The notes under the pieces: model-generated
Database searches by the model: none
What the model was told of the DNA's origin: nothing
Seen by the model: the letters and a program-made list of their open reading frames with translations, nothing else
Virus record (IMG/VR): IMGVR_UViG_3300047471_000162
Span: 48,904-112,903 of that record
DNA: 64,000 nt
Origin: a virus
Direction: 5' to 3' (one strand)
Translations under genes and position numbers: made by a program
Shown here: positions 15,573 through 51,502 of the stretch, piece by piece
How positions within the stretch are numbered: the stretch's first letter is position 1
Layout of the letters: every line of letters starts with the position of its first letter

Positions 15573-16163
15573 ATGTTTACTAGAAAATGCGGTACTTGCG
15601 CCCAGGATAAGCCACTAATATCCTTCGGCTTAAAATCTAAAGACCCCGTGAAATATCACTACACATGTCTAGAATGTGTAGCTGTATATTTAAAAAATCG
15701 CAAGTCCGAATTAAAAGCCTCATCAGGGGGTTGTATAGTTTCTCGTTGCAGATTCTCAGCAGAAGATACTATGTGTGCTCGCCACACTTTACGTTGGTCA
15801 TATATATCTACCTTTACCAAGGTAGTACAAACAGGTGACGAATGGTATCACCTATTAGGTAGCGCGGGCACTAAGGGTCCTGATGGGTATATAAAGATCA
15901 AGTTTTCTAGCCATCCAAATAGTAAATTACATGGGGCTTTGCCAGAACACACCTTAGTTATGACATACATGGTGGGTAGAGCCCTATTCCCTGGGGAAAA
16001 TGTTCATCATAAAAATGGTGTACGAGATGATAATCGTCCAGAAAATCTGGAACTTTGGTCAAAATCGCAACCTGCTGGTCAACGAATAGACGATAAAGTA
16101 AACTGGGCAATTGAATTACTTAGTGTATATAAGCCGGAGGTATTAATTAATGGTGTCCGATGA
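15573..16163 (+). CDS. HNH homing endonuclease
   Basis: ENVHHKNGVRDDNRPENLELW. Confidence 0.9.
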   Translation: MFTRKCGTCAQDKPLISFGLKSKDPVKYHYTCLECVAVYLKNRKSELKASSGGCIVSRCRFSAEDTMCARHTLRWSYISTFTKVVQTGDEWYHLLGSAGTKGPDGYIKIKFSSHPNSKLHGALPEHTLVMTYMVGRALFPGENVHHKNGVRDDNRPENLELWSKSQPAGQRIDDKVNWAIELLSVYKPEVLINGVR

Positions 16164-16572
16164 ATTTTTAATAGATCTATGGGGATCTCCAGAACCGGAG
16201 GTTCCCATTAAGTCGTCTGTATTTAATTCAATTACACTTACCAAATACTTTCAGGATAGGCTATTGTCTTCATCCTGGTATAAAGGTTTTGGTATTGTCA
16301 ATCAGCGCGCTATGGCTGGTCAGTTGTCACAGTGGAAGCGCCTAGGAGTACCAGCTGATACAGTCTATGCCATGATAGATCTCTACATGGAGGACTACAC
16401 TATGAGAGGTAAGTCCCCTAGTTGGCAGGACTTCATCTATCAACGTGATAAGCTTGCGTCTTCTCTTCCGAACACAGGAGATAAGTCGCAGCTTGACACA
16501 GACCCCCTGCTTGAGGCAGACTACAACCCAGAAGAAGCCATGCGCCAGTATCTTGCAGAGAGGAATAACTAG
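16150..16572 (+). CDS. Hypothetical protein (replication initiator position)
   Basis: GGAGG SD; directly precedes the DnaC-like loader. Confidence 0.6.
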   Translation: MVSDEFLIDLWGSPEPEVPIKSSVFNSITLTKYFQDRLLSSSWYKGFGIVNQRAMAGQLSQWKRLGVPADTVYAMIDLYMEDYTMRGKSPSWQDFIYQRDKLASSLPNTGDKSQLDTDPLLEADYNPEEAMRQYLAERNN

Positions 16573-17246
16573 TGGCATTCTCTAAGGAGTTCTATGATGG
16601 TCGATGGGAGCAGGCCAATATTCCCATCAAGATGCGAGGATTTCGTATAAAAGACTATAAGCCGGTGAGTAACAGTGGTGGAGTAGCTGCCCTTAAGGCT
16701 CAAGATTTTATTGATGACTTCTCCAATCGTTTTATCTCAGACAATCGAGCCGCTGCCGGTGATCTTCCTGAGGATAGGTCCCGAATCGGACAGGGTATGA
16801 TGCTGCTCGGCCCCAATGGCACGCGTAAGACTACTCTTGGGATTGCTGTACTGACTGAGCTACAGTATATTTCTCTTAGCTACCGTGGTTTCTATATTCG
16901 TTTCTCCGAGTGGCAGCGCTGCCTTACTGATACTTATAGTAAAGATAACAGTGCACGTATTACAACTGCCAAGAAGATGCTAGCCCTGGCAGAATTTATG
17001 CCAATCGTACTTCTTGATGACCTTGGGCAGGAGTACCGCACAGCTTCTGGTTTTACTCGTGATAAGTTTAATGAGTTTCTACGTGTACGCTATGATGCGG
17101 CACGTCCTACTATCGTAACTACTAATGAAGATCCTGACAGCATTCGAGAGATCTATGGTAAGAGCCTTGACAGCTTCCGCCATGATGCTTTTGGTGAGCC
17201 TATCCAGCTGCTTGGTCGGGATTCTCGTAAGCCTGGAAGGAATTAA
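16572..17246 (+). CDS. DnaC/IstB-like helicase loader ATPase
   Basis: LLGPNGTRKTT, VLLDDLGQE, R.RY....PTIVTTN, G.D.R. Confidence 0.85.
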   Translation: MAFSKEFYDGRWEQANIPIKMRGFRIKDYKPVSNSGGVAALKAQDFIDDFSNRFISDNRAAAGDLPEDRSRIGQGMMLLGPNGTRKTTLGIAVLTELQYISLSYRGFYIRFSEWQRCLTDTYSKDNSARITTAKKMLALAEFMPIVLLDDLGQEYRTASGFTRDKFNEFLRVRYDAARPTIVTTNEDPDSIREIYGKSLDSFRHDAFGEPIQLLGRDSRKPGRN

Positions 17247-17248
17247 CT

Positions 17249-17494
17249 ATGGAAGAATCCCGAAATATCTATGATATCCTCTCGAAAATTGAGTGGGAGG
17301 GTGGTATAGATGCAGTTTTGGATTATGGAATGCGTAATATTGATGAGTATGATGTCCCTGGTGAGTTGAAGGAGCAATGGGCAGAGATGTGCGATGCCTA
17401 TGCGGAGTTCGAGACTTTGCGCGATGAAATGGACAGAGCTCTATCACGTTTTGAGATTGAGTATGGAGAGAAGAATCCTACAGAGGAGTACTAA
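17249..17494 (+). CDS. Small acidic hypothetical protein
   Basis: Coupled ORF. Confidence 0.7.
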   Translation: MEESRNIYDILSKIEWEGGIDAVLDYGMRNIDEYDVPGELKEQWAEMCDAYAEFETLRDEMDRALSRFEIEYGEKNPTEEY

Positions 17495-17679
17495 TGTCAT
17501 ATGAGTACGAGATTGATAAGATTATCACTGTGTTTGACGCGCAGAATATGGAGGAGAGTGAGCTTCAGAGATTCCGCGAGTATCTTCGAGATATCCTTGA
17601 TGACTTTGAGGACGCAGCTTATTATCGCGGCATGGATTCTGTTCATGCGTGTTGTGATGATGGGTGTGGTTACTACTAA
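17494..17679 (+). CDS. Small acidic hypothetical protein
   Basis: TAATG coupling. Confidence 0.65.
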   Translation: MSYEYEIDKIITVFDAQNMEESELQRFREYLRDILDDFEDAAYYRGMDSVHACCDDGCGYY

Positions 17680-17837
17680 TGATGGATACTTTCGCTGAGA
17701 TTTATCAGGCTAAGTTCTACTGTGTGGAGTGTGACTCAGTAGTTATTCTTGTCTCTTGGAAGGATATCCTCAATAGTGGTGGAGTTCAGCGCTGTGATTG
17801 TTCCGACTTCGAAGATGAAGAGGAGGATGACGAGTGA
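17679..17837 (+). CDS. Small Cys-containing hypothetical protein
   Basis: TAATG coupling; 52 aa with CxxC and CxC. Confidence 0.55.
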   Translation: MMDTFAEIYQAKFYCVECDSVVILVSWKDILNSGGVQRCDCSDFEDEEEDDE

Positions 17838-18526
17838 ATATCGTACTTGAGGGCATCGTAGGCAGTACTGCCTACGGCCTTGCAACGCCTCTCTCAGACG
17901 TTGACAAGCTAGGTATCATGCAACTCCCCACTACTCACTTCCTAGGGCTTTCTAGCCCCTCTGAGAGCTCTCTGAGCTATGTTTCTACAGAGCCTGACGT
18001 GACCTATCATGACATCGGCAAGTTCAGCCGCTTGGCACTGAGTTGCAACCCAACGGTGACTGAGCTACTGTGGCTCCCTGATGACCTGTACACCGTGCGC
18101 ACAGAGCTAGGTGATCTTCTTATCCAGTTCCGTATGGCGTTCCTTTCCGCACAGCGTGTGCAGGATGCCTACATGGGGTATGCTGTCTCTCAGTTCAAGC
18201 GATTGAGTGAGCGAGGAGACTTTGGATCGGATACACGTAACCGTATCCAGAAGCATGCACGTCACCTCTTGCGCCTGATGCATCAGGGGTATACTCTCTA
18301 CTCAACAGGAGAGCTCCCGATCCGTCTGGAAGATCCCGAGCAGTACCACGCTTTCGGTAGACTGGTGGCTAAGAAGGCTAAATATGCTGAAGAGGCGGTT
18401 AGTAACTATCGTTTTATGTTCTCTAAGGCTGATACCGTACTTCCTGAGAAGCCAAATACTGAACTGATAGAAACAATTATTCTCAATACTCGTATAAATT
18501 CTTTGAGGAGTAGCAGTGGAGATTGA
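17834..18526 (+). CDS. Pol-beta-superfamily nucleotidyltransferase (YcgL/RlaP-like)
   Basis: GSTAYGLATPLSDVD...NPTVTELLW...KHARHLLRL. Confidence 0.85.
   Translation: MNIVLEGIVGSTAYGLATPLSDVDKLGIMQLPTTHFLGLSSPSESSLSYVSTEPDVTYHDIGKFSRLALSCNPTVTELLWLPDDLYTVRTELGDLLIQFRMAFLSAQRVQDAYMGYAVSQFKRLSERGDFGSDTRNRIQKHARHLLRLMHQGYTLYSTGELPIRLEDPEQYHAFGRLVAKKAKYAEEAVSNYRFMFSKADTVLPEKPNTELIETIILNTRINSLRSSSGD
17860..17995. other. Two-armed periodic segment (candidate gyrase site)
   Basis: gcctacggccttgcaacgcctctctcagacg...cctagggctttctagcccctctgagagctctctgagc. Confidence 0.45.
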
Positions 18527-18692
18527 CTGGGACGACTATGTGATTGGTAACGACTGGGTAGATACGGGTAAGCGATTCGTTTACCATGATGTAAAGGGAT
18601 GCCCCGATACTTCCGAGGAAGGTCTTTTCTCTCTTCAAGAGTTCATTGACTGGGCTCTAGAGCATCACGAGATTTGCAAGAAGGAGAATTAA
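18516..18692 (+). CDS. Hypothetical protein
   Basis: GAGGAG SD with GTG start; 58 aa. Confidence 0.55.
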   Translation: MEIDWDDYVIGNDWVDTGKRFVYHDVKGCPDTSEEGLFSLQEFIDWALEHHEICKKEN

Positions 18693-18693
18693 A

Positions 18694-19614
18694 TTGACCA
18701 TCATCACACTTTGTTACGGATTGCCCAGTTCAGGAAAGAGTACTTGGGCTAAGGAAGAGGTTGCCAATAGCAATGGACAGATTGTTCGTGTGAATATGGA
18801 TGATATCCGTGCCATGCTAGGCTATGGTCCTACCACTACCAGGGAAGAAGCGGCTGTAGTTCATAAGGTTCAGGATCAGGCTATTCTTGCAGCTGTAAAG
18901 CTTGGAAAGAATGTCATTGTAGATAATACTCACCTGAACAAGTCTGGACCCAATCGAATTAAGAAGCTATTCGATGGTGAGATTGAGTTTAAGGTTCAAG
19001 ATTTTACCCACATCTCTGTAGATGACTGTATCGCTGGGGATGATTTTCGCCGACAGTATGGTGAGCGTTATGTAGGCGAAAAGGTTATTCGTGATATGGC
19101 TAAGCAGCTGAATAAGCCTTGGAGGCTTACAGCTGAAGCAATGAATCTTGTAGAGTATCCTCTTGACCCCTATATCCCAGATCTTGATTCACCGCTCGCT
19201 GTGGTACTTGACATTGACGGAACTCTTGCTAGGCATCACCGTAGTCCTTACGATTATGCTAGGCTTCACACTGATTCAGTTTTCGAAGAGATCAAGTTTC
19301 TTGCACAGCTCTATTTCGACGCCAATTACAATGTCTTTATTGTGTCTGGTCGTCCTGAAATGGATAATAAGGGAAATGATTATCGTGCAGAGACTCTAGC
19401 TTGGCTCTATAAGAATAAGATTCCTTTTGATGATCTATTCATGCGCCGTGCAACTGACAAGCGCGATGATCGTGACGTTAAACATGAGATCTTCAACAAT
19501 GAGTTCCGTGATAAGTACAATGTGGAGCTGTGGATTGACGATCGCAATCGTGTAGTTCAGCGTATGCGTAAGCTTGGTATCAAGGTTGCCCAAATTGCGG
19601 ATGGAGATTTCTGA
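18694..19614 (+). CDS. pseT: Polynucleotide kinase/3'-phosphatase (T4 PseT-like)
   Basis: GLPSSGKST kinase; DIDGTLA, SGR and IDDR HAD phosphatase motifs. Confidence 0.92.
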   Translation: MTIITLCYGLPSSGKSTWAKEEVANSNGQIVRVNMDDIRAMLGYGPTTTREEAAVVHKVQDQAILAAVKLGKNVIVDNTHLNKSGPNRIKKLFDGEIEFKVQDFTHISVDDCIAGDDFRRQYGERYVGEKVIRDMAKQLNKPWRLTAEAMNLVEYPLDPYIPDLDSPLAVVLDIDGTLARHHRSPYDYARLHTDSVFEEIKFLAQLYFDANYNVFIVSGRPEMDNKGNDYRAETLAWLYKNKIPFDDLFMRRATDKRDDRDVKHEIFNNEFRDKYNVELWIDDRNRVVQRMRKLGIKVAQIADGDF

Positions 19615-19617
19615 CCC

Positions 19618-19998
19618 ATGACTGATGATGAGATTGCCGAGCTTTTTAATTTCGTTAGTCCTTTTGATAGAAAGCCTAAGCGTCCAAAGCCAAAGGCTGA
19701 AGAGGCAACTCACGATAGCTGGACTGACTGTTCTGGTGTGAAGTACTGGGTGCACCGCTGGCGTATGAGCTGTCGCAACGGTTGTGCTATCCATGCGCCT
19801 AGTTTTCACAGCATGCGAGACTGGCCGCAGTTTATGCGAGAGACATGGTTGGTAGAGCGCATGTGCCCACATGGTATTGGACACCCGGACCCAGATAGTG
19901 TAGCCTTCTTCGAGAAGAATGGCGATACAGGCTTTGGTGTCCATGGTTGTGACGGATGTTGTTCTAAGGGAACCGGTAAGCACCGTAAGGAGAAGTAA
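19618..19998 (+). CDS. Cys/His-rich hypothetical protein
   Basis: CAIHAPS.H.M...ERMCPHGIGHPDPD...HGCDGCC. Confidence 0.75.
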   Translation: MTDDEIAELFNFVSPFDRKPKRPKPKAEEATHDSWTDCSGVKYWVHRWRMSCRNGCAIHAPSFHSMRDWPQFMRETWLVERMCPHGIGHPDPDSVAFFEKNGDTGFGVHGCDGCCSKGTGKHRKEK

Positions 19999-20168
19999 TG
20001 ACTACTGCATTTGGCGCAGAGGATTGGTACCCTGAGTTAGCTGCGGAGATTGATGAGGCTATGACTCTGGATGATCTAATGTCCATGGATGAGATTGACG
20101 CCATGGTAGAGAAGTTTTCAGAGCTGCTTGCTGGTCTAACAGCAGCACCAGAGGTAGAGTATCCATAA
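19998..20168 (+). CDS. Small acidic hypothetical protein
   Basis: AAGGAG SD; TAATG coupling at both ends. Confidence 0.6.
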   Translation: MTTAFGAEDWYPELAAEIDEAMTLDDLMSMDEIDAMVEKFSELLAGLTAAPEVEYP

Positions 20169-20623
20169 TGCAAAAGGGAGAACTCAGCAATGAGATTCTT
20201 CCCCGAGTTTATATAGTTTTTGAGGGACTTATAGGCATCCTCCCGGATGCCAAAACTAAAGCCCTCGAAGCACTGGCGCGTAAAAGAAAGAAATGGGAAC
20301 AAGCTACTTCCTATTACCAACTGAATGTGTCAACTTCGGGTGGAATGCGGGATCTGTATTGGCGGCATCGCTTTCGAGTGGATGTCATTACCTTTATGGA
20401 TCCCGCATTTGTCTCTCCTATACGCGATAGGCTCGATGGTAGGAATCTATTATTTGGTGACGTGCATTACTACACATCCGCCACGGAGTTGAGTAGAGAT
20501 ATGGTTTACGACCAATCAATTCTAGGCGTGCTTGATCCAGACCCGTCCCATACGCTAGTGTACGGATCACGTGGAAGACACTGTCCTCCCGAACGACTCA
20601 ATCTACTACAGCTTTTGGTTTAA
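20168..20623 (+). CDS. Hypothetical protein (possible degenerate HAD fold)
   Basis: YIVFEGLIG N-terminal strand; precedes DnaB. Confidence 0.6.
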   Translation: MQKGELSNEILPRVYIVFEGLIGILPDAKTKALEALARKRKKWEQATSYYQLNVSTSGGMRDLYWRHRFRVDVITFMDPAFVSPIRDRLDGRNLLFGDVHYYTSATELSRDMVYDQSILGVLDPDPSHTLVYGSRGRHCPPERLNLLQLLV

Positions 20624-20641
20624 CAATATGAAAGGAGACGA

Positions 20642-21910
20642 ATGGCTGCCACTCTTGATGTAGATAAGCTCTTTGTATCTAAGATTGTGCAGGAGAAGGA
20701 CATCACGCCTGTGGCAGATGTGCCCCCGTACTTTATCTTTGATCCTGAATACCGTGAGGCTTTCGAGTATATTCGAAAGTATTATGCTGAGCATGGAGAG
20801 GTTCCTACTCTCCGAGTGATGCTAGCGGATTGTCCGCAGGTAAAGCTTGTCCAAGTAGACGAGCCATGGAAGGATATTATTGACCGAGTACAAACCAAGT
20901 ACATTGCGGGCATTCTGGAACAAGGGCTATCCAATGTAGTGGACAAGTATGAGGAAGGTGATATTGAATCTGCTGTCAATTTTCTAGGTGTTATCGTATC
21001 CAAAGTGCACACGGCGGTACCCAATAGCCGAGACACCGACATCACACAAACAGGTAGTGACCGCCTTGCACGGTACCAGGAACGGCGTGACAACCCTGGA
21101 ACCATGGTGGGTGTCCCAACAGGCTTTCCAACGCTGGACAGGGCCACTCAGGGGCTTCAGAAGGGTCAGCTGGTAACAGTCACTGGTCTGACTAAGGCCA
21201 GTAAGTCTACCTTGGCGCTACTGGTGGGTATGACTGTACAAAAGTCGGGAAAGCGTGTAGCGTACTTCACGTACGAGCAAACCTGTGAAGAGCAGGAGCG
21301 TAGATACGATGCATACAACGCGGGTATCAATGATAACCTGCTGAACAGTGGTAATGTATCCTCTGAGGATTGGAAGAAGGTAGTTGATGGTATTAAGGAT
21401 ACCGAGGAGCTACCGCCACTGATCTTCTGTGAAGATGCTATGACGGTTACAGCTGTGGGTGCCAAGTGTGATATCTATGATCCCGATGTAGTTATCATCG
21501 ATGGTACTTATATGCTTGAAGATGAGAACGGCGAGAACAAGGGATCTCCTCAGGCTCTGGCTAATATCGTGGCAGGCTTTAAGTTCATGGCCATGCGGCG
21601 TAAGATCTGTGTCATCCTTGTCACTCAGTCCACTCCCGCGCGAACCAAGGGTGAGACGTTGAACAACGACTCCATCATGGGCAGCCGTGCCTTCGTGCAG
21701 TACTCCAATGTGGTTATTGGTATTGAGCGTACTGAAGATACTAAGATGCGCAAGCTTAAGATCATCATGTCAAGGTCTTGTGCACCCTGCGACGTGATGC
21801 TAGAGTGGGACTACGATACAGGAACCTTCGAAGAGATAGAAGGTTACGACATGGACGATGCACTGGAGAAGATGCTGGAGGATGACAACAAGTTCGAAGA
21901 AATTTACTAG
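20642..21910 (+). CDS. dnaB: DnaB-like replicative helicase
   Basis: GVPTGFPTLD..T.GLQ.GQLV; VIIDG; VTQ; GS..F.Q. Confidence 0.88.
   Translation: MAATLDVDKLFVSKIVQEKDITPVADVPPYFIFDPEYREAFEYIRKYYAEHGEVPTLRVMLADCPQVKLVQVDEPWKDIIDRVQTKYIAGILEQGLSNVVDKYEEGDIESAVNFLGVIVSKVHTAVPNSRDTDITQTGSDRLARYQERRDNPGTMVGVPTGFPTLDRATQGLQKGQLVTVTGLTKASKSTLALLVGMTVQKSGKRVAYFTYEQTCEEQERRYDAYNAGINDNLLNSGNVSSEDWKKVVDGIKDTEELPPLIFCEDAMTVTAVGAKCDIYDPDVVIIDGTYMLEDENGENKGSPQALANIVAGFKFMAMRRKICVILVTQSTPARTKGETLNNDSIMGSRAFVQYSNVVIGIERTEDTKMRKLKIIMSRSCAPCDVMLEWDYDTGTFEEIEGYDMDDALEKMLEDDNKFEEIY
21060..21170. other. Periodic segment (candidate gyrase site)
   Basis: gctggacagggccactcaggggcttcagaagggtc arm. Confidence 0.35.
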
Positions 21911-22862
21911 CGGTTGGGGTACTCCAGTACCTGGGGATGTGCTAAGATGCTTAGAAGAACTGAGCATCACAGTATATAAACTCTCATACAATGAGGCTTG
22001 GTCCTTTTGTCCAGGGCATGAAAGAATCCTGGGCAAAAGAAACAATAAACCAGATAAGTGGTCCGTAAATATTGAAACCGGAATCCATAGTTGTTTCTCT
22101 TGTGGATTCTCCGGCTCCTTTGTCACTCTAGTTCAGGAGGTTAAGGGATATGGTCGAGCTGATGCAGAATCGTGGGTCCGTAGTCGTGGTGGAATCCAGC
22201 GAGTGCGACGAATACTGGCAGCTGCCTCTGGTAGTTTCGAGCCAGACACGAGGGTACGTACGTGGAATGAGTCGCGATTGGCGCTCTTCCAAGATCCTCC
22301 AGCTTCCGCACGCGATGGAAGAGGAGTTTCTGCGGGAAGTGTAGATCACTACGGTATACGTTGGTCGGATGGGGAGGATCCTTTCTGGGTTCTCCCCATA
22401 CGGGATCCTGAAGATGGGTCATTCTGGGGATACCAAGAGAAATCCGAAACTGGTTGGGTATCCAATAAGCCCTATGGTATTCAGAAGTCTCTGACTCTGT
22501 TTGGTATAGAGTGTTTTAATAGTCCGTTTGTCCTAGTACTTGAATCTCCATTGGATTGTGCCGTAGCATATACCAATGGAATTTTCGGAGCTGTATCTAC
22601 TTTCGGTGCCAAGGTCAGCGATGCGCAGTTAACGCTGTTGCTTGATTTTGGCGTACCGATTATCTTTGGCCTGGATAATGACGGCGCTGGTATAGAATCC
22701 TCTAGAAAGATTCGACAGAAGTTTATGGGGAGTGGCCATAGGATTAAGTTTCTCAACTACTCACACATTCCTACCAAGAAAGATATTGGTAGTGACTTAA
22801 CTAAAAAGGAAATACAAAGGGCTGTACTTGAAGCCGTGCCTATGATAATGTATAGGCCATGA
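21882..22862 (+). CDS. DNA primase (Zn finger plus TOPRIM)
   Basis: CPGH...CFSCG; ESPLD; LDNDGAG. Confidence 0.88.
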   Translation: MTTSSKKFTSGWGTPVPGDVLRCLEELSITVYKLSYNEAWSFCPGHERILGKRNNKPDKWSVNIETGIHSCFSCGFSGSFVTLVQEVKGYGRADAESWVRSRGGIQRVRRILAAASGSFEPDTRVRTWNESRLALFQDPPASARDGRGVSAGSVDHYGIRWSDGEDPFWVLPIRDPEDGSFWGYQEKSETGWVSNKPYGIQKSLTLFGIECFNSPFVLVLESPLDCAVAYTNGIFGAVSTFGAKVSDAQLTLLLDFGVPIIFGLDNDGAGIESSRKIRQKFMGSGHRIKFLNYSHIPTKKDIGSDLTKKEIQRAVLEAVPMIMYRP

Positions 22863-24855: not shown

Positions 24856-24862
24856 TTAACTA

Positions 24863-40768: not shown

Positions 40769-40831
40769 TAAAAACTTTTGGGGCTGTGGAGATAATATCA
40801 AAGCAGCCCCTTCTACTATTTGGAGTATAAA

Positions 40832-42560: not shown

Positions 42561-42595
42561 CAACATGCCGCGCCTCCTCGGACGCCTCCTCTCCG

Positions 42596-42640
42596 GAAAA
42601 CCTCTATTCGCCTATGCGGTGAGTAGGGGTTTTCTGTTTT
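42596..42640 (+). terminator. Intrinsic terminator
   Basis: gaaaacctctattcgcc-tatgc-ggtgagtaggggttttc-tgtttt. Confidence 0.75.
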
Positions 42641-42680
42641 AACGGTACAATCAAATGTAGAATACTTTGGTAATATCAAC

Positions 42681-42977: not shown

Positions 42978-42992
42978 TATTGGAGATGCCAC

Positions 42993-43238
42993 ATGGCTGG
43001 ACAATATAATAGTGGGATGTCTGTAGGTGTAAAGCCTTTCCAGCAGTCCAGCACAAGAACCGGGGAATTTTTCTCTGGTTCTATGCCGACTAGTAACGGA
43101 ACTGCTACTTCTCTACAACAAACTAATCCGGGCGGTTATCGACCTGCATCTGTAATAGGTCAATTTACTTCCAGCCCGAATGGTATGAGCCCCACAACAT
43201 ATGAAGCAAACCGTACTCTTAGTTACTATCGCCAGTAG
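42993..43238 (+). CDS. Low-complexity hypothetical protein
   Basis: GGAG SD; G/S/T/Q-rich. Confidence 0.65.
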   Translation: MAGQYNSGMSVGVKPFQQSSTRTGEFFSGSMPTSNGTATSLQQTNPGGYRPASVIGQFTSSPNGMSPTTYEANRTLSYYRQ

Positions 43239-43248
43239 GAGAAAACAC

Positions 43249-43584
43249 ATGGCAAATATGAATGAACCAGGAACAGGATCTTTCCCTACAATGGGTACCT
43301 CTGCCGCTCAACTATCCCACGTTGCCAAGCCTGAGAAGGGGCGTAGCCGTACACGCGGCACAGGGGGCAAGGGAGGATCCGATGCGGGTATGGGAACCAA
43401 GGCCAACCGTCGCCAGGCATACGGGCACATGGGGGCTTCCCTGCACCCTACAACGACCCTGTATGAGGCCAACGCTGCCTGTGCCTCAGACACTGGTCGC
43501 AACGTTGTACAGATGCCCTCCAGAGCTTCCTGGACAGACAATTGGAGAGGCGCAGCAAAGAAGCTACAGAATGGAGCTTACTAA
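43249..43584 (+). CDS. Low-complexity hypothetical protein
   Basis: AGGAG SD. Confidence 0.65.
   Translation: MANMNEPGTGSFPTMGTSAAQLSHVAKPEKGRSRTRGTGGKGGSDAGMGTKANRRQAYGHMGASLHPTTTLYEANAACASDTGRNVVQMPSRASWTDNWRGAAKKLQNGAY
43325..43490. other. Periodic segment (candidate gyrase site)
   Basis: gcctgagaaggggcgtagccg...gcaccctacaacgaccctgtatgaggcc. Confidence 0.35.
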
Positions 43585-43586
43585 TA

Positions 43587-43928
43587 ATGGATATAGAAGA
43601 GTCTAAAGTAGTTTCTTACTTTGACAAATTCGCCGCAATTTTTGGCTCCATAAAATTCATCGTAGGAATGACGATATTTATCATCGCGTGGTTTTTATGG
43701 AATATATTCGCACCAGCAGGTCTGGGCTTCGACACATATCCATTTATCTTTCTTACTTTACTATTATCTTTACAGGCTTCTTATGCAGCTCCTATTATTC
43801 TTTTCTCTCAGAATAGACAAGCAGAAAAGGATCGAGAGAAATTTGAGATGGATCTTGAATCTGATCTGAAGTCCGAGAAAATGCTTGAGAAGATTATGAA
43901 TAAGTTGGAAATCCCAATAGAGGAGTAG
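43587..43928 (+). CDS. DUF1003 membrane protein
   Basis: FGS..F...WN...FD.YPFI.L.L.LSLQASYAAPIIL.SQNRQ...DR. Confidence 0.85.
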   Translation: MDIEESKVVSYFDKFAAIFGSIKFIVGMTIFIIAWFLWNIFAPAGLGFDTYPFIFLTLLLSLQASYAAPIILFSQNRQAEKDREKFEMDLESDLKSEKMLEKIMNKLEIPIEE

Positions 43929-43930
43929 TT

Positions 43931-44443
43931 ATGAGTAATTGGTCGTACAATTCTCCTGTAGGACAACCAGGATCCACTACTGTAGGCGGTGGCGGTGGAT
44001 TACCTCTCTCAGGGTTCCGCAGCATTCTTGATGCACGTATTGCTATGGGTACGGCCAAGACTCCAGAGGCTCAATATCCTGATGGATATCTTGGATCTGT
44101 TATTGACAGAAGACAGGACAAGCTTCTTCAGACTGTCCGTAATAACGCCAGAAGCTATACAAGAGGAGTACACAAGGGCTCCAAGATTGCACCAGTGGAT
44201 TATTTTTGGCCTGATGATTTTAATCCGATGATTACCCTAAATAATAGGATAGCAGGAAATAACGAAAGATTTTCCGCACCGGGTAATCCTATTGAACGTT
44301 TAGCCCACGGCGGCAAATTTATGAGTCAAGCCGAAGCTAACCAAATCAGACAAGAAATGAACCTACCCCCCGACCCTCAAATGCGATCGGTAGATCCCGT
44401 TATTCGTAGAGAACAATTTAAAAATTTACCTGGTTGGCGCTAG
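43931..44443 (+). CDS. Hypothetical protein
   Basis: GAGGAG SD; YPDGYLG...RRQDKLL...RGVHKG. Confidence 0.75.
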
Positions 44444-44469
44444 GACTTACTATCTGCTATACTGGCCAC

Positions 44470-44988
44470 ATGAAACTATGTATTTTAGAAGATTGTGAGA
44501 AGGCTAGATGGGCTAAGGGATACTGTAATGGTCACTATAAAAAGTGGAGAAAATACGGAGATCCCTTAGTTCAGAAAAAGATTAGTATTCCCGTTTCTCA
44601 ATGTTTGGAAGAAGCTTGTGAGGAGCCTTCTAGATATAATCCGGGATATTGCGCAAAACATGGCCAGCGACAGAATAAAAACGGTATAACTGACGATCCC
44701 AAAAAAGGCTGGCATACAAACGCTCAAGGCTATATTCAGATGAATAATAGCTCCAGTCCTTACGCTAACAAGAGCGGAATAGTTTTACAGCACCGTCAAG
44801 TTATGGCGGAAAAGTTAGGAAGAACCCTACTCAAGGGAGAAAATATTCATCATAAGAACGGCAAGCGCGATGACAATAGAGTTGAAAACCTTGAGCTTTG
44901 GGTAACTATACAACCCACAGGACAACGGGCAGAAGATTTAGTAGCCTACGCCCTGGAAATCCTAGAAAGATATGGAACCTATGGGTGA
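44470..44988 (+). CDS. HNH homing endonuclease
   Basis: [21 protein letters not shown]; TATACT 6 nt before the ATG (leaderless). Confidence 0.9.
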
Positions 44989-45280
44989 GATTCAGAATGC
45001 TAACTCAGTGTATGACTACACAAAACCCACTCAAACCTTTGCAGAAGAACTAGTATCTGCTAAGTTACTAGCGAATTCTCAGGCAGAGGCTCAAAATAGA
45101 CGACCACCCGTTCCTAATATAGGAAGAATTACTCCTAGATATGGTTATCGAGTGGATCCGGCTACTATTGAAGATATCCTCAATGTAGATGAGAACTTCC
45201 CAGCTAAGTTCGGTGACTGGTCTGGTACTGTATCTGGATACGAGGGTACCTCTTATCCGAATGTCACATCACAACTGTAG
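44981..45280 (+). CDS. Hypothetical protein
   Basis: ORF in operon. Confidence 0.65.
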
Positions 45281-45288
45281 AGGTAACG

Positions 45289-45468
45289 ATGCCAAAGAGA
45301 GCAGTAAGCAAGACAGTGAGATCCGATGACAAGAGAGCTACTGGTACCGCCAAGAACAAGCGTGTGGTAAAGTCCCCAGAAGCTAAGAAGACTAGCGTAC
45401 CTAAGGTAGCTGCATTCAAGAAGCAGACACCTGGTGGTGGCGCAGGAAGACCAAAGAAGGTAAAGTAA
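45289..45468 (+). CDS. Very basic small protein
   Basis: MPKRAVSKTVRSDDKRATGTAKNKRVVK...GRPKKVK, 59 aa; GAGG SD. Confidence 0.65.
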   Translation: MPKRAVSKTVRSDDKRATGTAKNKRVVKSPEAKKTSVPKVAAFKKQTPGGGAGRPKKVK

Positions 45469-45716
45469 TGGCTTATCCAAGGTTAAGAAGCATGAATGCA
45501 GACCTAGACAAGGGTGCAACTGACGGTACTTACAAGCAGGTTGCGCCTGACCGTGGTGGTGTAGTAGAGTCAAGCTTCATGGAGATGCGCAGACACCTAG
45601 ATGACGTCTGGCATGGACAGCGTGAAGCGCCTGACAAGTACATCATGGGTCGCTGTAAGGTAGCCAATACGCCTGGCTACTTCCCTACACCTGCACCAGA
45701 TATGGATCGTTGGTAA
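45468..45716 (+). CDS. Hypothetical protein
   Basis: TAATG coupling; RSMN.DL..GATDG.YK. Confidence 0.65.
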   Translation: MAYPRLRSMNADLDKGATDGTYKQVAPDRGGVVESSFMEMRRHLDDVWHGQREAPDKYIMGRCKVANTPGYFPTPAPDMDRW

Positions 45717-45751
45717 GGTTGTAATTGAGCACTCCCCAAGCTACACTGTAC

Positions 45752-46497
<746 letters not shown>

Positions 46498-46502
46498 GCA
46501 CT

Positions 46503-46535
46503 AAGGGGTCAGTCCTTTCCAGGCTGACCCCTTTC
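46503..46535 (+). terminator. Intrinsic terminator
   Basis: aaggggtcag...ctgacccctttc. Confidence 0.75.
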
Positions 46536-46580
46536 TGTTATGATGTACTAGAAACTAAACGTAACTGATAAGGATTATTA

Positions 46581-47117
46581 ATGGCGAACAAGAACTTGAC
46601 AGGCATTTTTATCTGCTTTATCTGTAAGACATTGGAAGATCTTACAAATTATGATCCGGATGAAGCTGATAGGGATACTCGCATCGGTCTATTAGTAGAG
46701 AATCACATGCGTAGACATCCTTCTGTTGAGGATAAGAATGTAACGGATTGGGCTTCTCTAGGATCTGTTCCCACAGAGCATTGGGATAGCAAAGAAACAC
46801 GTAAGGAAATTACCAAGAAGATTCTTGAGGGTAATGGGCTTACTGGTTTTGACGCGGAGTTCTATGCGACATTGGATACGTTCAAGGCAGATGCTCTAGC
46901 TTGTTTCCAAGCGCATGGCAGACCAGCATATAAGGCTCCAGGATGTCAGGATTACCTTTCCAATTCTAAGGAATTGAAGCCTAATACTGCTATTGAGCGC
47001 AAGGCAGCTGGATTGCCTTCCTATGACGATGTCAAGGTAAAGCGATCCTTTTTATGCCAACATTGTCCATACCATTCTGATGCCATTTCCAAGATCCGCA
47101 TGGAGCAGGCCAGATGA
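46581..47117 (+). CDS. Cys/His-rich hypothetical protein
   Basis: CFICK, H...H, CQDY, LCQHCP. Confidence 0.75.
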   Translation: MANKNLTGIFICFICKTLEDLTNYDPDEADRDTRIGLLVENHMRRHPSVEDKNVTDWASLGSVPTEHWDSKETRKEITKKILEGNGLTGFDAEFYATLDTFKADALACFQAHGRPAYKAPGCQDYLSNSKELKPNTAIERKAAGLPSYDDVKVKRSFLCQHCPYHSDAISKIRMEQAR

Positions 47118-47302
47118 AGTTAAATAAAACAACTAAGTGGGGAATTATTCTATCTTCCCTATATTTAGTATTAGCCTTATATATCTCCGTATTCAGATGG
47201 TCGGATGTACAAGGAAATTTAGAAGCATCTTATCTATGCTCGGCACCATTCGTAGCAAGTCATGTATTATTGCACCGTAAGATTAACAAGGCAAATAATT
47301 AG
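47114..47302 (+). CDS. Small membrane protein
   Basis: ATGA coupling; hydrophobic. Confidence 0.6.
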   Translation: MKLNKTTKWGIILSSLYLVLALYISVFRWSDVQGNLEASYLCSAPFVASHVLLHRKINKANN

Positions 47303-47312
47303 GAGAATATAA

Positions 47313-47657
47313 ATGACCAATGAGCAAGAGTTAAACCTGGCGGAGCTTATGGAGAAGATTGGGGAAGATGTAGCCACAGCATTCCTGGTTTATCAAACAC
47401 TTGATGGTAGTTGGACTGCTACCGCTGATTTCCAGGATAAGAATCTCAATCTTGAGCGTAAGGCTACTTTTGACGATATCGTTGGGGGAGCTTCTGCTGT
47501 CCAGGCAGGTTGTATTGCTCAACAGAGTGCTATGCATACAGTTATGCTTATGGAACAGAGAGCAGCAGCTATGCAGCAATACGCCAGAGAGCAGGCTGAA
47601 TCTCAGAAGGTATCCCAATTGATTGATCCAAGTAAGCTGAGAAATCCTAGAGCCTAA
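47313..47657 (+). CDS. Hypothetical protein
   Basis: AGGAG SD. Confidence 0.7.
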   Translation: MTNEQELNLAELMEKIGEDVATAFLVYQTLDGSWTATADFQDKNLNLERKATFDDIVGGASAVQAGCIAQQSAMHTVMLMEQRAAAMQQYAREQAESQKVSQLIDPSKLRNPRA

Positions 47658-47671
47658 TTAGCCTTATTATT

Positions 47672-47703
47672 AAAGGGAGTCCCTAATAAAGGGCTCCCTT
47701 TTC
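47672..47703 (+). terminator. Intrinsic terminator
   Basis: aaagggag.ccct...agggctccctttt. Confidence 0.7.
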
Positions 47704-47729
47704 TTATTAACAGAGGGTAAACTATAACT

Positions 47730-48590
47730 ATGACACTTTTACACGGCGCTAGTGGTTACTTTTCGAGACCACAATTAATACTTGACCCTAATCTATTCAA
47801 TGGAACTGAGTTAATTCCCCATGTTAGACAAACACTCCTGGATATATTCTTTGACCATATGGCTACTATGTATAACGATCCCCATAGCTGGATTATGTTA
47901 TGGCTTGCGGGAAGTGGAGTCAGCTATCAATGGAGCGCTAACCGTGGGAATGGTGATCTCGACATCTTATTGGGGCTCGACTACACAAAGTTCGCCTCCC
48001 TTAATCCCGGGCAAGAGTACTACACCAGAGACGAAATAGCCCAACAAATGGATGATATGTTGAAGAGACATCTGTGGCCAAGGACTGCGCATACGGAATT
48101 TGGCTCTTCAGTATATGAAGTTACATATTATTTGAACCCATTTACTGAAAACTATGATGAGTCCATTAATAATATCCATCCCTATGCTGCTTATAATCTC
48201 ACTGAGAATCATTGGACTATAAATCCTATGGAACCCAATGAATATTCTCAGCAGTATCCTATGGAATTTGAGGTACAAGCGGCAGCTAATAGAGATACTG
48301 CTGAGAAGTTAGCCAATAGATATCAGCATCTGACGCAGCAGCTAAGTAGTATACATCCTAATAGTCCTCTCGGTCATAATCTGACGGCATCCAAGACGCT
48401 ACTTATTCAGCACATAAAGAGTATGTTTGACACCATTCACCTGGGAAGAAAGCAAGCATTTTCTGACATGGGATCAGGATACGGAGATTTCTATAACTAT
48501 CAGTGGCAAGCTGCCAAGAGAGATGGTATAGTGGCGACATTCAATGAGATCCTAAGTAAGGAAGAAAATAGTGGTCGAATCCTGGAGTAA
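47730..48590 (+). CDS. Pol-beta-fold nucleotidyltransferase
   Basis: LAGSGVSYQW...GDLDILL...YEVTYY...AAYNL....W. Confidence 0.75.
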   Translation: MTLLHGASGYFSRPQLILDPNLFNGTELIPHVRQTLLDIFFDHMATMYNDPHSWIMLWLAGSGVSYQWSANRGNGDLDILLGLDYTKFASLNPGQEYYTRDEIAQQMDDMLKRHLWPRTAHTEFGSSVYEVTYYLNPFTENYDESINNIHPYAAYNLTENHWTINPMEPNEYSQQYPMEFEVQAAANRDTAEKLANRYQHLTQQLSSIHPNSPLGHNLTASKTLLIQHIKSMFDTIHLGRKQAFSDMGSGYGDFYNYQWQAAKRDGIVATFNEILSKEENSGRILE

Positions 48591-49068
48591 CCATATAGCT
48601 ATTGTCGTAGAGGGTATTCTCCGTATGCCTAATGATTCTGCCTCTATAATCCCAGGGCTATTACTATATAGATCCCTAGTAAAGGACCATAGAGTATCCC
48701 TCATTATCGATAGTGCCAATAAAGAACGAGTCCAATATTGGCTACTGATGAACGGAATGACTGACCATACTAAGGAGATCTATTGGGATGAGACAGATCC
48801 GGAGGATACTATAGCGCGTAGAATAGCTCAGATTGGTAGACTTAGACAAGATGGTCCGCTATCCTTAGTATTCGAATCAGATACTTCTGTCGCTGCTGCA
48901 CTACTAGAAAGAGGAATACCTTCTTTTCTATTCTTGCATCCTCAGTACACACATCCTGAGTTTAGGCCAGATGCCAAGGCACCTATTACTCCTTGGGCAG
49001 AATTACTAGCAGAGCAGACTCGTCAGATAGAAGCGAGAGCAACAGATACTCGAATAAATGATTTCTAG
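48571..49068 (+). CDS. HAD-like hypothetical protein
   Basis: IVVEGILR (canonical Asp absent); FESD...G.PS.LF.HP.Y..PEFRPD. Confidence 0.55.
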   Translation: MVESWSNHIAIVVEGILRMPNDSASIIPGLLLYRSLVKDHRVSLIIDSANKERVQYWLLMNGMTDHTKEIYWDETDPEDTIARRIAQIGRLRQDGPLSLVFESDTSVAAALLERGIPSFLFLHPQYTHPEFRPDAKAPITPWAELLAEQTRQIEARATDTRINDF

Positions 49069-49076
49069 GAGAATAG

Positions 49077-49985
49077 ATGAGTACACCAGTTAATACAGCT
49101 GCTGTTAATGCTATGGGTGGGCAGTTCAATACGAATGTCTTCAAGGATGTACAGCACTTTGCAGTAAAGCAGGGACGTAAATCACAAGTACGTGCTAATA
49201 AGGCTGCGGCAGCTAATAAGCCAGCAACTCCTGTAGCGAATATACCGCAGCAATTACCCAACGCGCCAATTGGCGGGCTACCAGCGAATGCTGTTGCTGC
49301 GGGTAGAGCAAGTAGACAAGCAAAAGCGCAAGGCGGAGGATTTACACCAACAGTAAAAACTGCTCCAACACCCTTCGGTCCCCCAGCACCAGCTGCACCA
49401 GTCTCTGGGGCAACAGTCACAGCAGGCCGTCAGGCACGCCAACAGAGAGCACAGCAGGCAAATACACCACCGCTGTCTCCACAGTTCTCTAGTGCGCCTT
49501 CTCAGGCTCCGCATCACGCTATTCCAGCTCCTGCTGCAACCCGAGCAGCACCAGGTTTCTCAGCTCCACAGGCTTCTGCTCCCGCAATAAATCAGGCAGC
49601 ACCAAAGCCTTCTACTAATCCCTTCCAAGTTAATACTATGCAAACTAGAAATCCTCCCACTCCTGCTTACTCTAATTCTGGTCCAAGTACCCCAGCACCT
49701 TCAGCTATGCCTACTAGTGGAAAGACTTCTCCAGTGAATCCTCAGTTTTCTAATGTGAGCACTAAGGATAATTCCCCATTTCCCACTCATGTACATCCTG
49801 AAGGTTCTTCTAACCAGATTCTTCCTAGATTAACGGCAGCCCAGTCTTCTCCTGGTAAGCCTAATGAATTTACTGTAGGTTCCAGAAGTATAAAGGGTGG
49901 AGGAATAGCTTCCATGGGATCTCAGTTGGAAGCAGGATTATCTGCAAGACCACTTACTTTGCCACAACCTAGAAAGCGAGTATAG
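49077..49985 (+). CDS. Pro/Ala/Gln-rich disordered protein
   Basis: AGGAG SD; low complexity. Confidence 0.7.
   Translation: MSTPVNTAAVNAMGGQFNTNVFKDVQHFAVKQGRKSQVRANKAAAANKPATPVANIPQQLPNAPIGGLPANAVAAGRASRQAKAQGGGFTPTVKTAPTPFGPPAPAAPVSGATVTAGRQARQQRAQQANTPPLSPQFSSAPSQAPHHAIPAPAATRAAPGFSAPQASAPAINQAAPKPSTNPFQVNTMQTRNPPTPAYSNSGPSTPAPSAMPTSGKTSPVNPQFSNVSTKDNSPFPTHVHPEGSSNQILPRLTAAQSSPGKPNEFTVGSRSIKGGGIASMGSQLEAGLSARPLTLPQPRKRV
49400..49520. other. Periodic segment (candidate gyrase site)
   Basis: gcaggccgtcaggcacgccaacagagagc...tctctagtgcgccttctcaggctccgc. Confidence 0.35.
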
Positions 49986-49987
49986 TC

Positions 49988-51502
49988 ATAAAGCTCTACT
50001 ATCAAGGTGGGGAGTTACCTACATATAAAAATATCATGACAGATTGCGGCATATTAGATATCTCCCTATCTTATTTCGGACTAAGAAGACGTACTAAGTT
50101 CACCAAGCCTTGGCTTATACAGGATAAATTTAAAAGCAATCAGAATATCTTTATCGATTCTGGTTGCCATACCATTAATTCGGCTAAAGAACAGGTGTAT
50201 ACAAATGAAGAACTCAAAGGAATCGCTGAGCATTACTATTCATGGATCACTGACAATATCAGTGAAATTGAGATCTACTCTGAATTCGACTCAACGCAAC
50301 TTGGTGATAAATTCATTGAAGGGTATAGGGGTTCAGTTCAGAGCATTTCCCCAGATAAGTTCTTACCTATTTGGCACTCAGATTACGGGACAGATAATCT
50401 CCGCAGACTTGGAGAAACTTACGGACGCGTTGGAATTCTGCAAACGGCAATCGGCGGAAGAGACCTTGTCCCTGTGCTCAATAGTGTGGCAGCCAGAGGG
50501 ATAAAGCTTCATGGATTAGCTATGACTAAACCAGATATTATGCAGGCTGTTCCATGGGAATCTGTATCTTCTACTTCATGGATTTCTCCCATGCAGTATG
50601 GAGATACTATTATCTGGTCGCATAATCAGTTAAAAAGATATCCTAAGAAAATGAAGGATCAAGCTAGAAAGAAAGAAAGAGCCGCCTTTATGGCTGGTGG
50701 GTTCGATCTGGAGAAAATCTATGACGATGATGCACATGAATTATTACGTGTATCTCTGTGGTCATGGACCAAGCAGGTTGAAGCAATTAATCGTAAGACT
50801 AATAGAGGAGTAACTACACCCGTGAATTATAGTGATGATGAGTTCTCGGACTTTGACTCTGCTGATGTTGGTACTGTAGTGGATAGAGTGCAGAAGAGAG
50901 TACCAACTGCCCTACCTAGAAATCCTTCTGATAGACAGGTTATTCCTTTCCTTGATTTCGATATAGATATCGAGAAGAGAAAGAATAAGCTGACTGGGGA
51001 GATGGAGGATATTGAAGTTCCCAAGGTCAGAGTACGCAGCGAATCCATGCGTATTTGTGATACTTGTTTCCTCGCGGCTAAGTGCCCTATGTTCGAAGAG
51101 AATACAACGTGCGCCTATGATATTCCCATTGTTGTAGAAACCAAAGAACAGATGACTTCACTCATGAATTCTGTGGTTTCTATGCAAGCGCAGCGCGTTT
51201 TGTTCATGAAAATGGCTGAGGATACTTCAGGAGGATACGCTGATCCTGTACTTTCGGGAGAAATTGACCGCCTGGGTAAGCTTATGAAGACCAAGCATGA
51301 GATGGAACAAGAAGGTTTCAGTCTTACTGTTACAGCTAAGCAACAGGGTCAAATGTCTATGGTTGACCGTATCTTCGGCGATATAGGTAATACAAAGACG
51401 CTCCATGAGCTGGAAGCTCCAAGACAGGTATCGGATGCTATGTCTGATCTAGGTATTATGGACGCAGAACTTATTGAACTTCCACTTAGAGATGAGCTAT
51501 GA
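49988..51502 (+). CDS. tRNA-guanine-transglycosylase/DpdA-like protein with C-terminal Cys4 and helical domain
   Basis: FIDSG, EFD, PIWH, LHGLAMT, PWESVSSTSW; CDTC.....CP.......C; first ATG at 50036, frame open from 49973. Confidence 0.65.
   Translation: MKLYYQGGELPTYKNIMTDCGILDISLSYFGLRRRTKFTKPWLIQDKFKSNQNIFIDSGCHTINSAKEQVYTNEELKGIAEHYYSWITDNISEIEIYSEFDSTQLGDKFIEGYRGSVQSISPDKFLPIWHSDYGTDNLRRLGETYGRVGILQTAIGGRDLVPVLNSVAARGIKLHGLAMTKPDIMQAVPWESVSSTSWISPMQYGDTIIWSHNQLKRYPKKMKDQARKKERAAFMAGGFDLEKIYDDDAHELLRVSLWSWTKQVEAINRKTNRGVTTPVNYSDDEFSDFDSADVGTVVDRVQKRVPTALPRNPSDRQVIPFLDFDIDIEKRKNKLTGEMEDIEVPKVRVRSESMRICDTCFLAAKCPMFEENTTCAYDIPIVVETKEQMTSLMNSVVSMQAQRVLFMKMAEDTSGGYADPVLSGEIDRLGKLMKTKHEMEQEGFSLTVTAKQQGQMSMVDRIFGDIGNTKTLHELEAPRQVSDAMSDLGIMDAELIELPLRDEL

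Follow-up and report, generated by a model that had tools for sequence, protein, structure and literature searches.

Use of TTA and other A-ending codons divides the conserved genes of a BRock-like phage into two classes that may match two tRNA supplies

In the phage genome IMG/VR record IMGVR_UViG_3300047471_000162, the leucine codon TTA accounts for 13.5% of all Leu codons, and its use differs strongly between genes: none of 277 Leu codons in the replisome and RNA-repair genes is TTA, compared with 23 of 158 in the major virion set (major capsid, sheath, tube, portal and scaffold). The window, i.e. the whole stretch of DNA analysed, comprises 64,000 nucleotides and corresponds to bases 48904-112903 of the 112,903-bp record (the right 64 kb; record GC content 45.7%). 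The split in TTA use was confirmed as real and statistically strong. We consider it somewhat better than an even chance (roughly 0.55) that two codon classes match two tRNA supplies, with one class (L) readable by host tRNAs and made early and the other (H) dependent on phage-encoded tRNAs and made later.

The closest cultured relatives, determined by a protein search with PolA, are the phages LuckySocke, Alone3, GiJojo, pSt2308 and BRock (112-116 kb, GC 52-53.5%, PolA identity 59-62%), all of which infect Streptomyces. The relatives were found at the protein level only; a megablast search of the phage collection with one 4.6-kb stretch gave no match. Ninety-nine open reading frames (ORFs) of the IMG/VR phage are conserved in the five cultured phages in the same order, and their tRNA genes are likewise collinear. 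Shared genes, synteny and tRNA array place the phage with the BRock-like Streptomyces myoviruses (Borockvirus and allies), although in a genus of its own to judge from the low PolA identity (59-62%). Another five relatives, uncultured and full-length (G001-G005, referred to as the AT-clade), have GC contents of 44.6-48.7% and a PolA 68-71% identical to that of the IMG/VR phage. As all compared genomes are related, genome counts do not equal independent events. Gene calls are longest ORFs filtered by conservation, with approximate start codons. In the 53%-GC relatives, greedy calling of longest ORFs gave numerous spurious ORFs on the antisense strand, and these held the few TTA; ORFs conserved between genomes were used instead. 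The gene order agrees with the LuckySocke annotation, with tail and baseplate genes at window positions 1-13853. A block for replication, recombination and nucleotide metabolism follows at about 16000-41000, and small genes, Rpf and others extend to about 52000.

The genes without TTA are given below (window positions; fractions are TTA among Leu, ATA among Ile and AGA among Arg codons; GC3, GC content of third codon positions).

29854-31893, + strand, PolA, DNA polymerase I: TTA 0/66, ATA 1/39, 14 CTA, 24 CTT, GC3 0.41; the strongest TTA-free case
20642-21910, + strand, DnaB-like helicase (Pfam DnaB_C): TTA 0/28
16572-17246, + strand, IstB/DnaC-like helicase loader (Pfam IstB_IS21, AAA): TTA 0/18
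28520-29290, + strand, SSB-like gene: TTA 0/15, ATA 0/13, AGA 0/13
18694-19614, + strand, polynucleotide kinase-phosphatase (PNKP), pseT-like (Pfam HAD_PNKP, AAA_33): TTA 0/23, ATA 0/20, AGA 0/23
36165-36800, + strand, RNA ligase (Pfam RNA_ligase): TTA 0/17, ATA 0/13, AGA 0/12
17834-18526, + strand, RlaP-family RNA-repair nucleotidyltransferase (Pfam RlaP, E = 8.5e-22): TTA 0/30
38212-39303, + strand, Cas4-like exonuclease (PHROG 2506, 1706): TTA 0/29
39843-40559, + strand, ThyX thymidylate synthase (Pfam Thy1): TTA 0/24
45889-46497, + strand, secreted Rpf-LysM protein (Pfam Transglycosylas, LysM): no TTA from ATG 45889
14333-15337, + strand, 334-aa gene without assigned function: TTA 0/30, ATA 0/17

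A sequence-only reading of the window had listed ten of these genes (all except gene 14333) as TTA-free, which proved correct for all ten, for Rpf when read from ATG 45889; its longest ORF starts at 45799 and has TTA at codons 6 and 22 of that ORF. It had also described free use of CTA and CTT in most of these genes, as is evident in PolA, and TTA in structural genes, HNH genes, primase and nrdJ, which was counted in each. The gene names it had given are backed by Pfam or PHROGs with the exception of SSB. This gene (28520-29290) has no Pfam or PHROG match, and the name derives from orthology alone, i.e. from a 31%-identical gene annotated as SSB in LuckySocke. Gene 14333 has no Pfam or PHROG match either.

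TTA per Leu was modelled on the GC3 of the remaining codons using a binomial generalized linear model. About two-fold overdispersion was left after GC3 had been accounted for (Pearson chi2 304 on 133 df; conserved genes, 222 on 119 df). Among the 51 genes with ≥ 15 Leu each, 13 had zero TTA; GC3 alone predicts 4.0, and none of 20,000 simulations gave more than 11. For the nine large genes named as TTA-free, 24.6 TTA were expected under this model and 0 were seen, and the lack of TTA in PolA has P = 2e-4. The GC3-only model is thus rejected, and AT content as the sole cause of the TTA counts, which the sequence-only reading had named as grounds for giving up its idea, does not hold. The distribution consists of a spike at zero and a broad mode at about 20%, forming a continuum above zero; a mixture of a binomial and a beta-binomial fitted better than a single beta-binomial (log-likelihood -182.7 vs -190.2). 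The earlier description of the split as near-binary is therefore right for the spike at zero and somewhat overstated for the rest, given the broad mode and the intermediate values of major capsid (2/28) and tail tube (1/11).

The 121 conserved genes contain 308 TTA (14.3% of Leu). By their TTA+ATA content, 15 low genes (class L) and 46 high genes (class H) were delineated, with TTA at 0.7% in class L vs 19.8% in class H and ATA at 3.8% vs 26.7%. Amino acid identity to LuckySocke is the same in both (52.1% vs 52.4%, P = 0.88), and so is the GC3 shift from the cultured phages (-0.185 vs -0.184); consequently, the split is due neither to composition nor to gene origin. The log2 enrichment of class H over class L is 4.4 for TTA, 2.7 for ATA, 2.2 for AGA, 2.0 for AAA, 1.0 for CCA, 0.9 for CAA and 0.8 for CTA. 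The codons which separate the classes besides TTA and ATA (AGA, AAA, CCA, CAA, CTA and TCA) all end in A, and each has a cognate phage tRNA. The same codons divide the same orthologues in the cultured relatives. Genes with more TTA+ATA in the IMG/VR phage also tend to have more AGA in the cultured phages (rho = 0.70, P = 5e-10) and more TTA+ATA in the AT-clade (rho = 0.71, P = 1e-11). When classes were set from the relatives only, TTA in the IMG/VR phage was still 4.7% (L) vs 16.9% (H). The class structure is kept across the ten relatives, in line with the earlier suggestion of one gene class readable by host tRNAs and another in need of an additional tRNA. Structural genes are enriched over replication genes for these codons.

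Left of the window, 30 tRNA genes were detected using ARAGORN, in agreement with Rfam. They include tRNA-Leu(UAA), tRNA-Ile(UAU), tRNA-Arg(UCU) and many further U34 tRNAs for A-ending codons. The tRNA-Leu(UAA), for which the sequence-only reading had allowed as a phage gene outside the window, was found by both programs at genome positions 12629-12712, some 36 kb to the left of the window. This tRNA is of type II, with a length of 84 nt and discriminator A (Rfam 51.6 bits). The tRNA-Ile(UAU) is located at genome positions 21192-21268 (Rfam 59.7 bits). A blastn search with the tRNA-Leu(UAA) against the phage collection matched only type II tRNA-Leu genes of a generic kind, from phages of Pseudomonas, Vibrio and Aeromonas (75-79% identity), and no actinophage, which does not inform on its origin. 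The encoded 3' CCA end is missing from most phage tRNA genes. The set of RNA-repair genes is complete, with Ro/TROVE (genome 15227-16876), RlaP, PNKP and RNA ligase, all of which have zero TTA and ≤ 2 ATA or AGA. Because most phage tRNAs do not encode the CCA end, these enzymes may be needed first, perhaps for tRNA maturation or repair.

The tRNA array has the same order in the five cultured relatives, but tRNA-Leu(UAA) and tRNA-Ile(UAU) are lacking. Their conserved genes contain 2-6 TTA in about 1,700 Leu (0.1-0.3%), and ATA makes up 0.6-2.2% of Ile; nonetheless, CTA reaches 12% and AGA 17-20%. This agrees with the report that UUA is as a rule wholly absent from the genomes of Streptomyces phages (PMC10732093). 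All five AT-clade genomes carry both tRNAs at the same array positions; TTA makes up 4-10% of their Leu codons and ATA 7-18% of their Ile codons. The six tRNA-bearing genomes together, i.e. with the IMG/VR phage, range from 4-14% for TTA and from 7-21% for ATA. Use of TTA and ATA hence accompanies the two tRNAs in 6/6 genomes with both and in 0/5 without. The UUA reader of G001-G005 is a type I tRNA of 74 nt, resembling the type I Leu(CAA), and occupies the array position which holds the type II tRNA in the IMG/VR phage; UUA reading thus seems to have originated, or to have been exchanged, on two or more occasions.

Within the tRNA-bearing genomes, the avoidance in the replisome is strict. PolA has TTA counts of 0/61, 0/65, 0/61, 0/67 and 0/62 in the AT-clade (0/382 Leu for the six genomes including the IMG/VR phage) and DnaB 0/33, 0/32, 0/31, 0/37 and 0/34. 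The loader, the SSB-like gene, RNA ligase and gene 14333 likewise have zero TTA in the five AT-clade genomes. For gene 14333, the pooled count in four AT-clade relatives is 0/115, and AGA is 0/55 in the cultured relatives. Always TTA-rich are SNF2 (6-9 TTA in 56-64 Leu) and RecA (3-5 in 24-26). Primase has zero TTA in four of the five AT-clade relatives vs 3/23 in the IMG/VR phage, and ThyX has 2/18, 2/18, 1/17, 3/17 and 0/19.

Codons other than TTA allow the comparison to be extended to the cultured phages. An index of six codons (AGA, CTA, AAA, TCA, CCA and CAA) gives 3.8% for replisome and RNA repair vs 17.5% for the major virion set in the cultured relatives, in which CTA reaches 23% in major virion proteins, and 10.6% vs 28.2% in the IMG/VR phage. 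In every relative, the replication and RNA-repair genes shun AGA, CTA and AAA as well. The most abundant proteins thus use the codons of the phage tRNAs and replication and RNA-repair proteins do not, as expected if synthesis of the replication and repair proteins precedes the supply of phage tRNAs.

The explanation by two tRNA supplies would run as follows. Class L comprises the replisome core (PolA, DnaB, loader, SSB-like), RNA repair (Ro/TROVE, RlaP, PNKP, RNA ligase), gene 14333, Rpf and the right arm of the genome. It avoids A-ending codons with phage-encoded cognate tRNAs (TTA, ATA, AGA, AAA, CTA, CCA, CAA and TCA), so that the tRNA pool of a high-GC actinomycete host would suffice to read it. 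Class H consists of virion, HNH and recombination or accessory genes (SNF2, RecA, RuvC, WhiB), whose free use of these codons implies dependence on the array of 30 tRNAs; we infer that the host decodes such codons poorly. Gain of tRNA-Leu(UAA) and tRNA-Ile(UAU) would have opened TTA and ATA, near-forbidden in the sister phages, to class H only in the AT-rich lineage. The most likely reason would be timing, with class L needed as soon as infection begins, when the phage tRNAs have yet to accumulate and mature, and class H made afterwards. From gene function, class L is probably early and class H probably late.

The genes which contain TTA, and the right arm, are given below.

21858-22862, + strand, Toprim primase (Pfam Toprim_2): TTA 3/23, ATA 7/20; the longest ORF overlaps the end of dnaB
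22859-24442, + strand, SNF2-family helicase (Pfam SNF2-rel_dom, Helicase_C): TTA 9/54 including codon 7; 4-nt overlap with primase
24439-24855, + strand, small TTA-rich gene: TTA 7/17; 4-nt overlap with the SNF2 gene; LuckySocke orthologue annotated 'host nuclease inhibitor'
32872-34482, + strand, ribonucleotide reductase (Pfam Ribonuc_red_lgC): TTA 5/40
34622-35758, + strand, RecA-like recombinase (Pfam RecA): TTA 8/29; likely start ATG 34685
37667-38017, + strand, Holliday junction resolvase (PHROG 2002): TTA at codon 4
37977-38312, + strand, WhiB-family regulator (Pfam Whib): six TTA, one at codon 3 from ATG 37983
47730-48590, + strand, gene without assigned function: TTA 6/29, one at codon 4
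50036-51502, + strand, queuine tRNA-ribosyltransferase-like gene, 488 aa (PHROG 887, E = 7e-109): TTA 6/36, codon 7
15573-16163, 27594-28163 and 44434-44988, three paralogous HNH_3 endonucleases: TTA 9/17, 2/15 and 5/15
548-13853, + strand, tail and baseplate genes: TTA 12-38% of Leu per gene (also given as 15-40%)
52000-64000, both strands, right arm: 51-55% GC vs about 45% elsewhere; TTA and ATA nearly nil

The 'other tail/baseplate' set, which includes three genes upstream of the window, has TTA 88/414, ATA 90/333 and AGA 94/163. The HNH_3 genes are scattered in the replication block and their presence varies among the relatives. Gene 50036 may encode a tRNA-modifying or a DNA 7-deazaguanine-modifying enzyme belonging to the TTA-using class. 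In the right arm, the gene at 62783-63835 (- strand) has TTA 0/28 and ATA 0/21, and few right-arm genes have orthologues in the relatives; the arm may be an immediate-early block read by the host machinery or a region with another history.

TTA close to the start codon had been pointed out in the sequence-only reading. The positions listed above hold for the resolvase, gene 47730 and SNF2 with longest-ORF starts, and TTA at codon 3 of RecA and WhiB is true from ATG 34685 and 37983, respectively. In recA, a very strong hairpin with a 15-bp stem (34651-34684) ends one base before the likely start (ATG TCT TTA). TTA is enriched in codons 2-10 with an odds ratio of 2.3 in the IMG/VR phage and 3.6 in the relatives. 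The enrichment is common to AAA, CAA, GAA and CCA and does not extend to ATA; a dedicated 5' TTA gate was rejected on these grounds. The enrichment resembles the usual bias towards A-rich codons at the beginning of genes.

Matches to a σ70-like promoter compared with shuffled sequences numbered 25 vs 33.9 at 14000-33999 and 54 vs 34.2 at 34000-53000, an excess in the second region only. Among them, a few sites with the best scores upstream of TTA-free genes were noted. A promoter-like site at 28385-28414 (11/12 positions) precedes the SSB-like gene and a very strong 20-bp hairpin (29303-29348) lies just 3' of it; the gene is apparently its own transcription unit. Gene 14333 has a promoter-like site directly upstream (14274-14302, 10/12 positions), and Rpf has a promoter-like site at 45783-45812 and a hairpin at 46503-46533. 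As an anecdotal observation, the SSB-like gene, gene 14333 and Rpf would be self-contained units with near-consensus σ70-type promoters and strong hairpins, which fits host-only expression.

Several observations weigh against an explanation by two tRNA supplies acting at different times. DnaB (0/28), primase (3/23), SNF2 (9/54) and gene 24439 (7/17) overlap in series. Judging from these overlaps, the four genes are probably on one mRNA. Since genes of classes L and H are interleaved and translationally coupled here, different transcription times cannot explain the stretch from DnaB to gene 24439; either this string contains internal promoters or the codon content of its genes staggers their translation. 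TTA is very scarce also in the major capsid, sheath and tube genes of the less AT-rich relatives, which implies that expression level contributes for TTA and ATA. In G001, G002, G003 and G005, ARAGORN did not find a tRNA-Arg(UCU), and AGA still makes up 26-35% of Arg, in contrast to the pattern of TTA and ATA; not every class H codon thus needs a cognate tRNA from the phage. Loss of tRNA-Arg(UCU) had been considered as a second natural comparison and was rejected, because AGA use is not lower in the genomes without this tRNA and so is not limited by it. The association between tRNAs and codons may rest on one or two evolutionary events only. Furthermore, the genome stems from a rhizosphere metagenome, and the host may or may not be a streptomycete. 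The public holders of the sequence are rhizosphere and soil DNA runs only, with no RNA run among them, and no transcriptome of any relative was found in the literature searched.

Concerning the host, Streptomyces is favoured by the hosts of the cultured relatives and by a type I tRNA-Leu(CAA) in the tRNA array, since S. coelicolor has such a tRNA. Caution is advised by the metagenomic source and by the Rpf-LysM protein, whose nearest cellular homologues (about 50% identity) are from Amycolatopsis, Actinocrispum, Kibdelosporangium and Actinophytocola (Pseudonocardiaceae) and from Micromonospora, with no Streptomyces in the top 80. The Rpf gene is also present in the Streptomyces-infecting relatives, and host inference from Rpf is ambiguous. 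The argument from codons would be the same with every high-GC actinomycete as host.

Two other explanations dispense with tRNA supply as a temporal signal. According to the one, TTA-free genes are GC-richer or recently imported, i.e. the pattern is neutral composition or mosaic origin. GC3 does explain part of the variance (log-likelihood -980 to -941) and is higher in class L (0.47 vs 0.36), but strong overdispersion is left after the fit, and both classes are equal in identity to the cultured clade and in GC3 shift. Moreover, PolA is nearer to the AT-clade than to the cultured clade with its GC3 already down to 0.41, and the pattern recurs in five more genomes at ≤ ~70% amino acid identity. 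This explanation is largely refuted and the least probable of all. According to the other, only expression level matters: TTA and ATA are the slowest codons and are shunned by genes needing quantity or accuracy. The continuum above zero is in favour, as are capsid, sheath and tail tube, which have 0.9-1.5% TTA+ATA in the AT-clade relatives and are intermediate in the IMG/VR phage. However, PolA, DnaB, PNKP and RNA ligase are stricter than capsid although they are not expected to be more abundant, as seen in the 0/277 vs 23/158 TTA given above. In the virion proteins of the cultured relatives, AGA and CTA are at or above the genome average, compared with a roughly five-fold avoidance in replisome and RNA repair. 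Expression level thus plays some part but cannot be the main axis, and we regard it as unlikely to be the whole explanation.

The remaining two make TTA a regulatory codon. In host bldA gating, TTA genes wait for a developmentally regulated host tRNA-Leu(UAA), and the sequence-only reading had proposed such a timer tying virion production to the state of the host. It is appealing in that a UUA-based sensor of host state has been proposed for phage Hau3 (PMC10732093) and the closest cultured relatives infect Streptomyces. It would require that no other UUA reader is present and that TTA is rare and limited to few regulatory or late genes. The phage, however, brings its own UUA decoder, the 308 TTA in conserved genes represent bulk use, and ATA, AGA and AAA, which are beyond the reach of bldA, are split alike. 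Relatives without the phage tRNA are nearly TTA-free, so TTA is not their switch either, and the host may belong to another genus. Gating by bldA is disfavoured and was assigned a very low probability. The orthologue of gene 24439 is among the very few genes with TTA in the tRNA-less cultured phages (1/19, 1/16 and 1/19), and this could be a true bldA-sensitive codon there. Alternatively, TTA and ATA density might be tuned within operons, with phage tRNAs as a clock and not as mere supply: the replisome would come first, and SNF2, RecA, RuvC, WhiB and virion genes would follow once a threshold of phage tRNA is reached. The alternation of TTA-free and TTA-rich genes in coupled strings (DnaB, primase, SNF2 and the next gene) fits this, and in the six genomes no other genes are as consistently rich in TTA as SNF2, RecA and RuvC. 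The 2.3-fold and 3.6-fold enrichment of TTA in codons 2-10 points the same way, but is shared by AAA, CAA, GAA and CCA and not by ATA. TTA counts of ThyX and primase drift among relatives, for which relaxed constraint is a better fit than tuned gates, and the timing is taken from gene function. We judge such tuning to be improbable, comparable to expression level alone. A clock of this kind acting in polycistronic mRNAs, by which the origin-type replisome and the RNA-repair enzymes (which may mature or protect tRNAs) would be translated at once and the recombination set (SNF2, RecA, RuvC, resolvase), WhiB and virion genes held back, is likewise doubtful. If true, codon choice instead of promoters would determine when the phage passes from early replication to recombination, packaging and assembly, and a UUA reader on two tRNA scaffolds at the same array position would indicate strong selection.

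Two side observations concern the tRNA array. Type I tRNA-Leu genes (short variable arm) occur in the family at genome positions 12542-12837, with Leu(CAA) in all members except BRock. Type I tRNA-Leu is otherwise a Streptomyces peculiarity, and the type I tRNA-Leu(CAA) of S. coelicolor can replace bldA when its anticodon is changed to UAA (PMC6614811). Between tRNA-Val and tRNA-Ser, an 82-nt element (genome 20288-20369) matches the Rfam tmRNA model RF00023 with 59.2 bits (gathering threshold 47); the match spans both model ends with the middle missing, and ARAGORN made no call. Based on this match, the element looks like a tRNA-like 'mini-tmRNA' without mRNA domain.

A connection between phage tRNAs and the codons of late genes has been described before (PMC12482277). 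Arrays matching late genes are known from Shigella phage Sf14 (PMC12482277), from work on early and late codon usage (PMC5683454) and from T4-like cyanophages (PMC3152331). The IMG/VR phage resembles these in being a large lytic phage with a GC content below that of its likely host, a near-complete U34-rich tRNA set, and cognate A-ending codons concentrated in virion genes and depleted in replication genes. In contrast to them, TTA and ATA are nearly absent from the sister phages and present only in the lineage with the cognate tRNAs, exclusion from the replisome is near absolute, and the classes are interleaved in coupled strings instead of forming separate modules. With bldA/TTA control in Streptomyces (PMC2000904) and the Hau3 terminase sensor (PMC10732093), it shares the codon and the broad host group, and there, too, a TTA gene is poorly translated unless a UUA-reading tRNA is present. 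Here, however, the phage itself encodes the decoder, TTA is used in bulk (14% of Leu), ATA, AGA and AAA behave alike, and no link to host development is needed or shown. BRock itself is a virulent myovirus with 29 tRNAs (PMC7453282). Its group, the BRock-like Streptomyces myoviruses (Borockvirus; 111-116 kb), agrees with it in gene order and has 28-30 tRNAs in a syntenic array, and the split into classes L and H is visible there via AGA, CTA and AAA. Unlike the IMG/VR phage, the cultured members carry Thr(CGU) and Thr(GGU) in place of Leu(UAA) and Ile(UAU) and have practically no TTA or ATA. The codon split is thus an instance of the known association of phage tRNAs with late-gene codons, unusually sharp and well controlled and with the TTA codon involved.

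Why phages carry tRNAs is still debated, and this family offers an unusually clean natural comparison: TTA and ATA go from near-forbidden to 14-21% usage, in one conserved gene class only. Codon choice in these phages would be set gene by gene by the available tRNA pool, which leads to direct predictions for the cultured phages LuckySocke and BRock with AGA and CTA as marker codons. For Streptomyces biology, it would mean that a phage can escape scarce host UUA decoding by bringing the decoder instead of shunning the codon. This may be relevant for phage host range and for the use of such tRNAs as tools to express TTA-containing genes.

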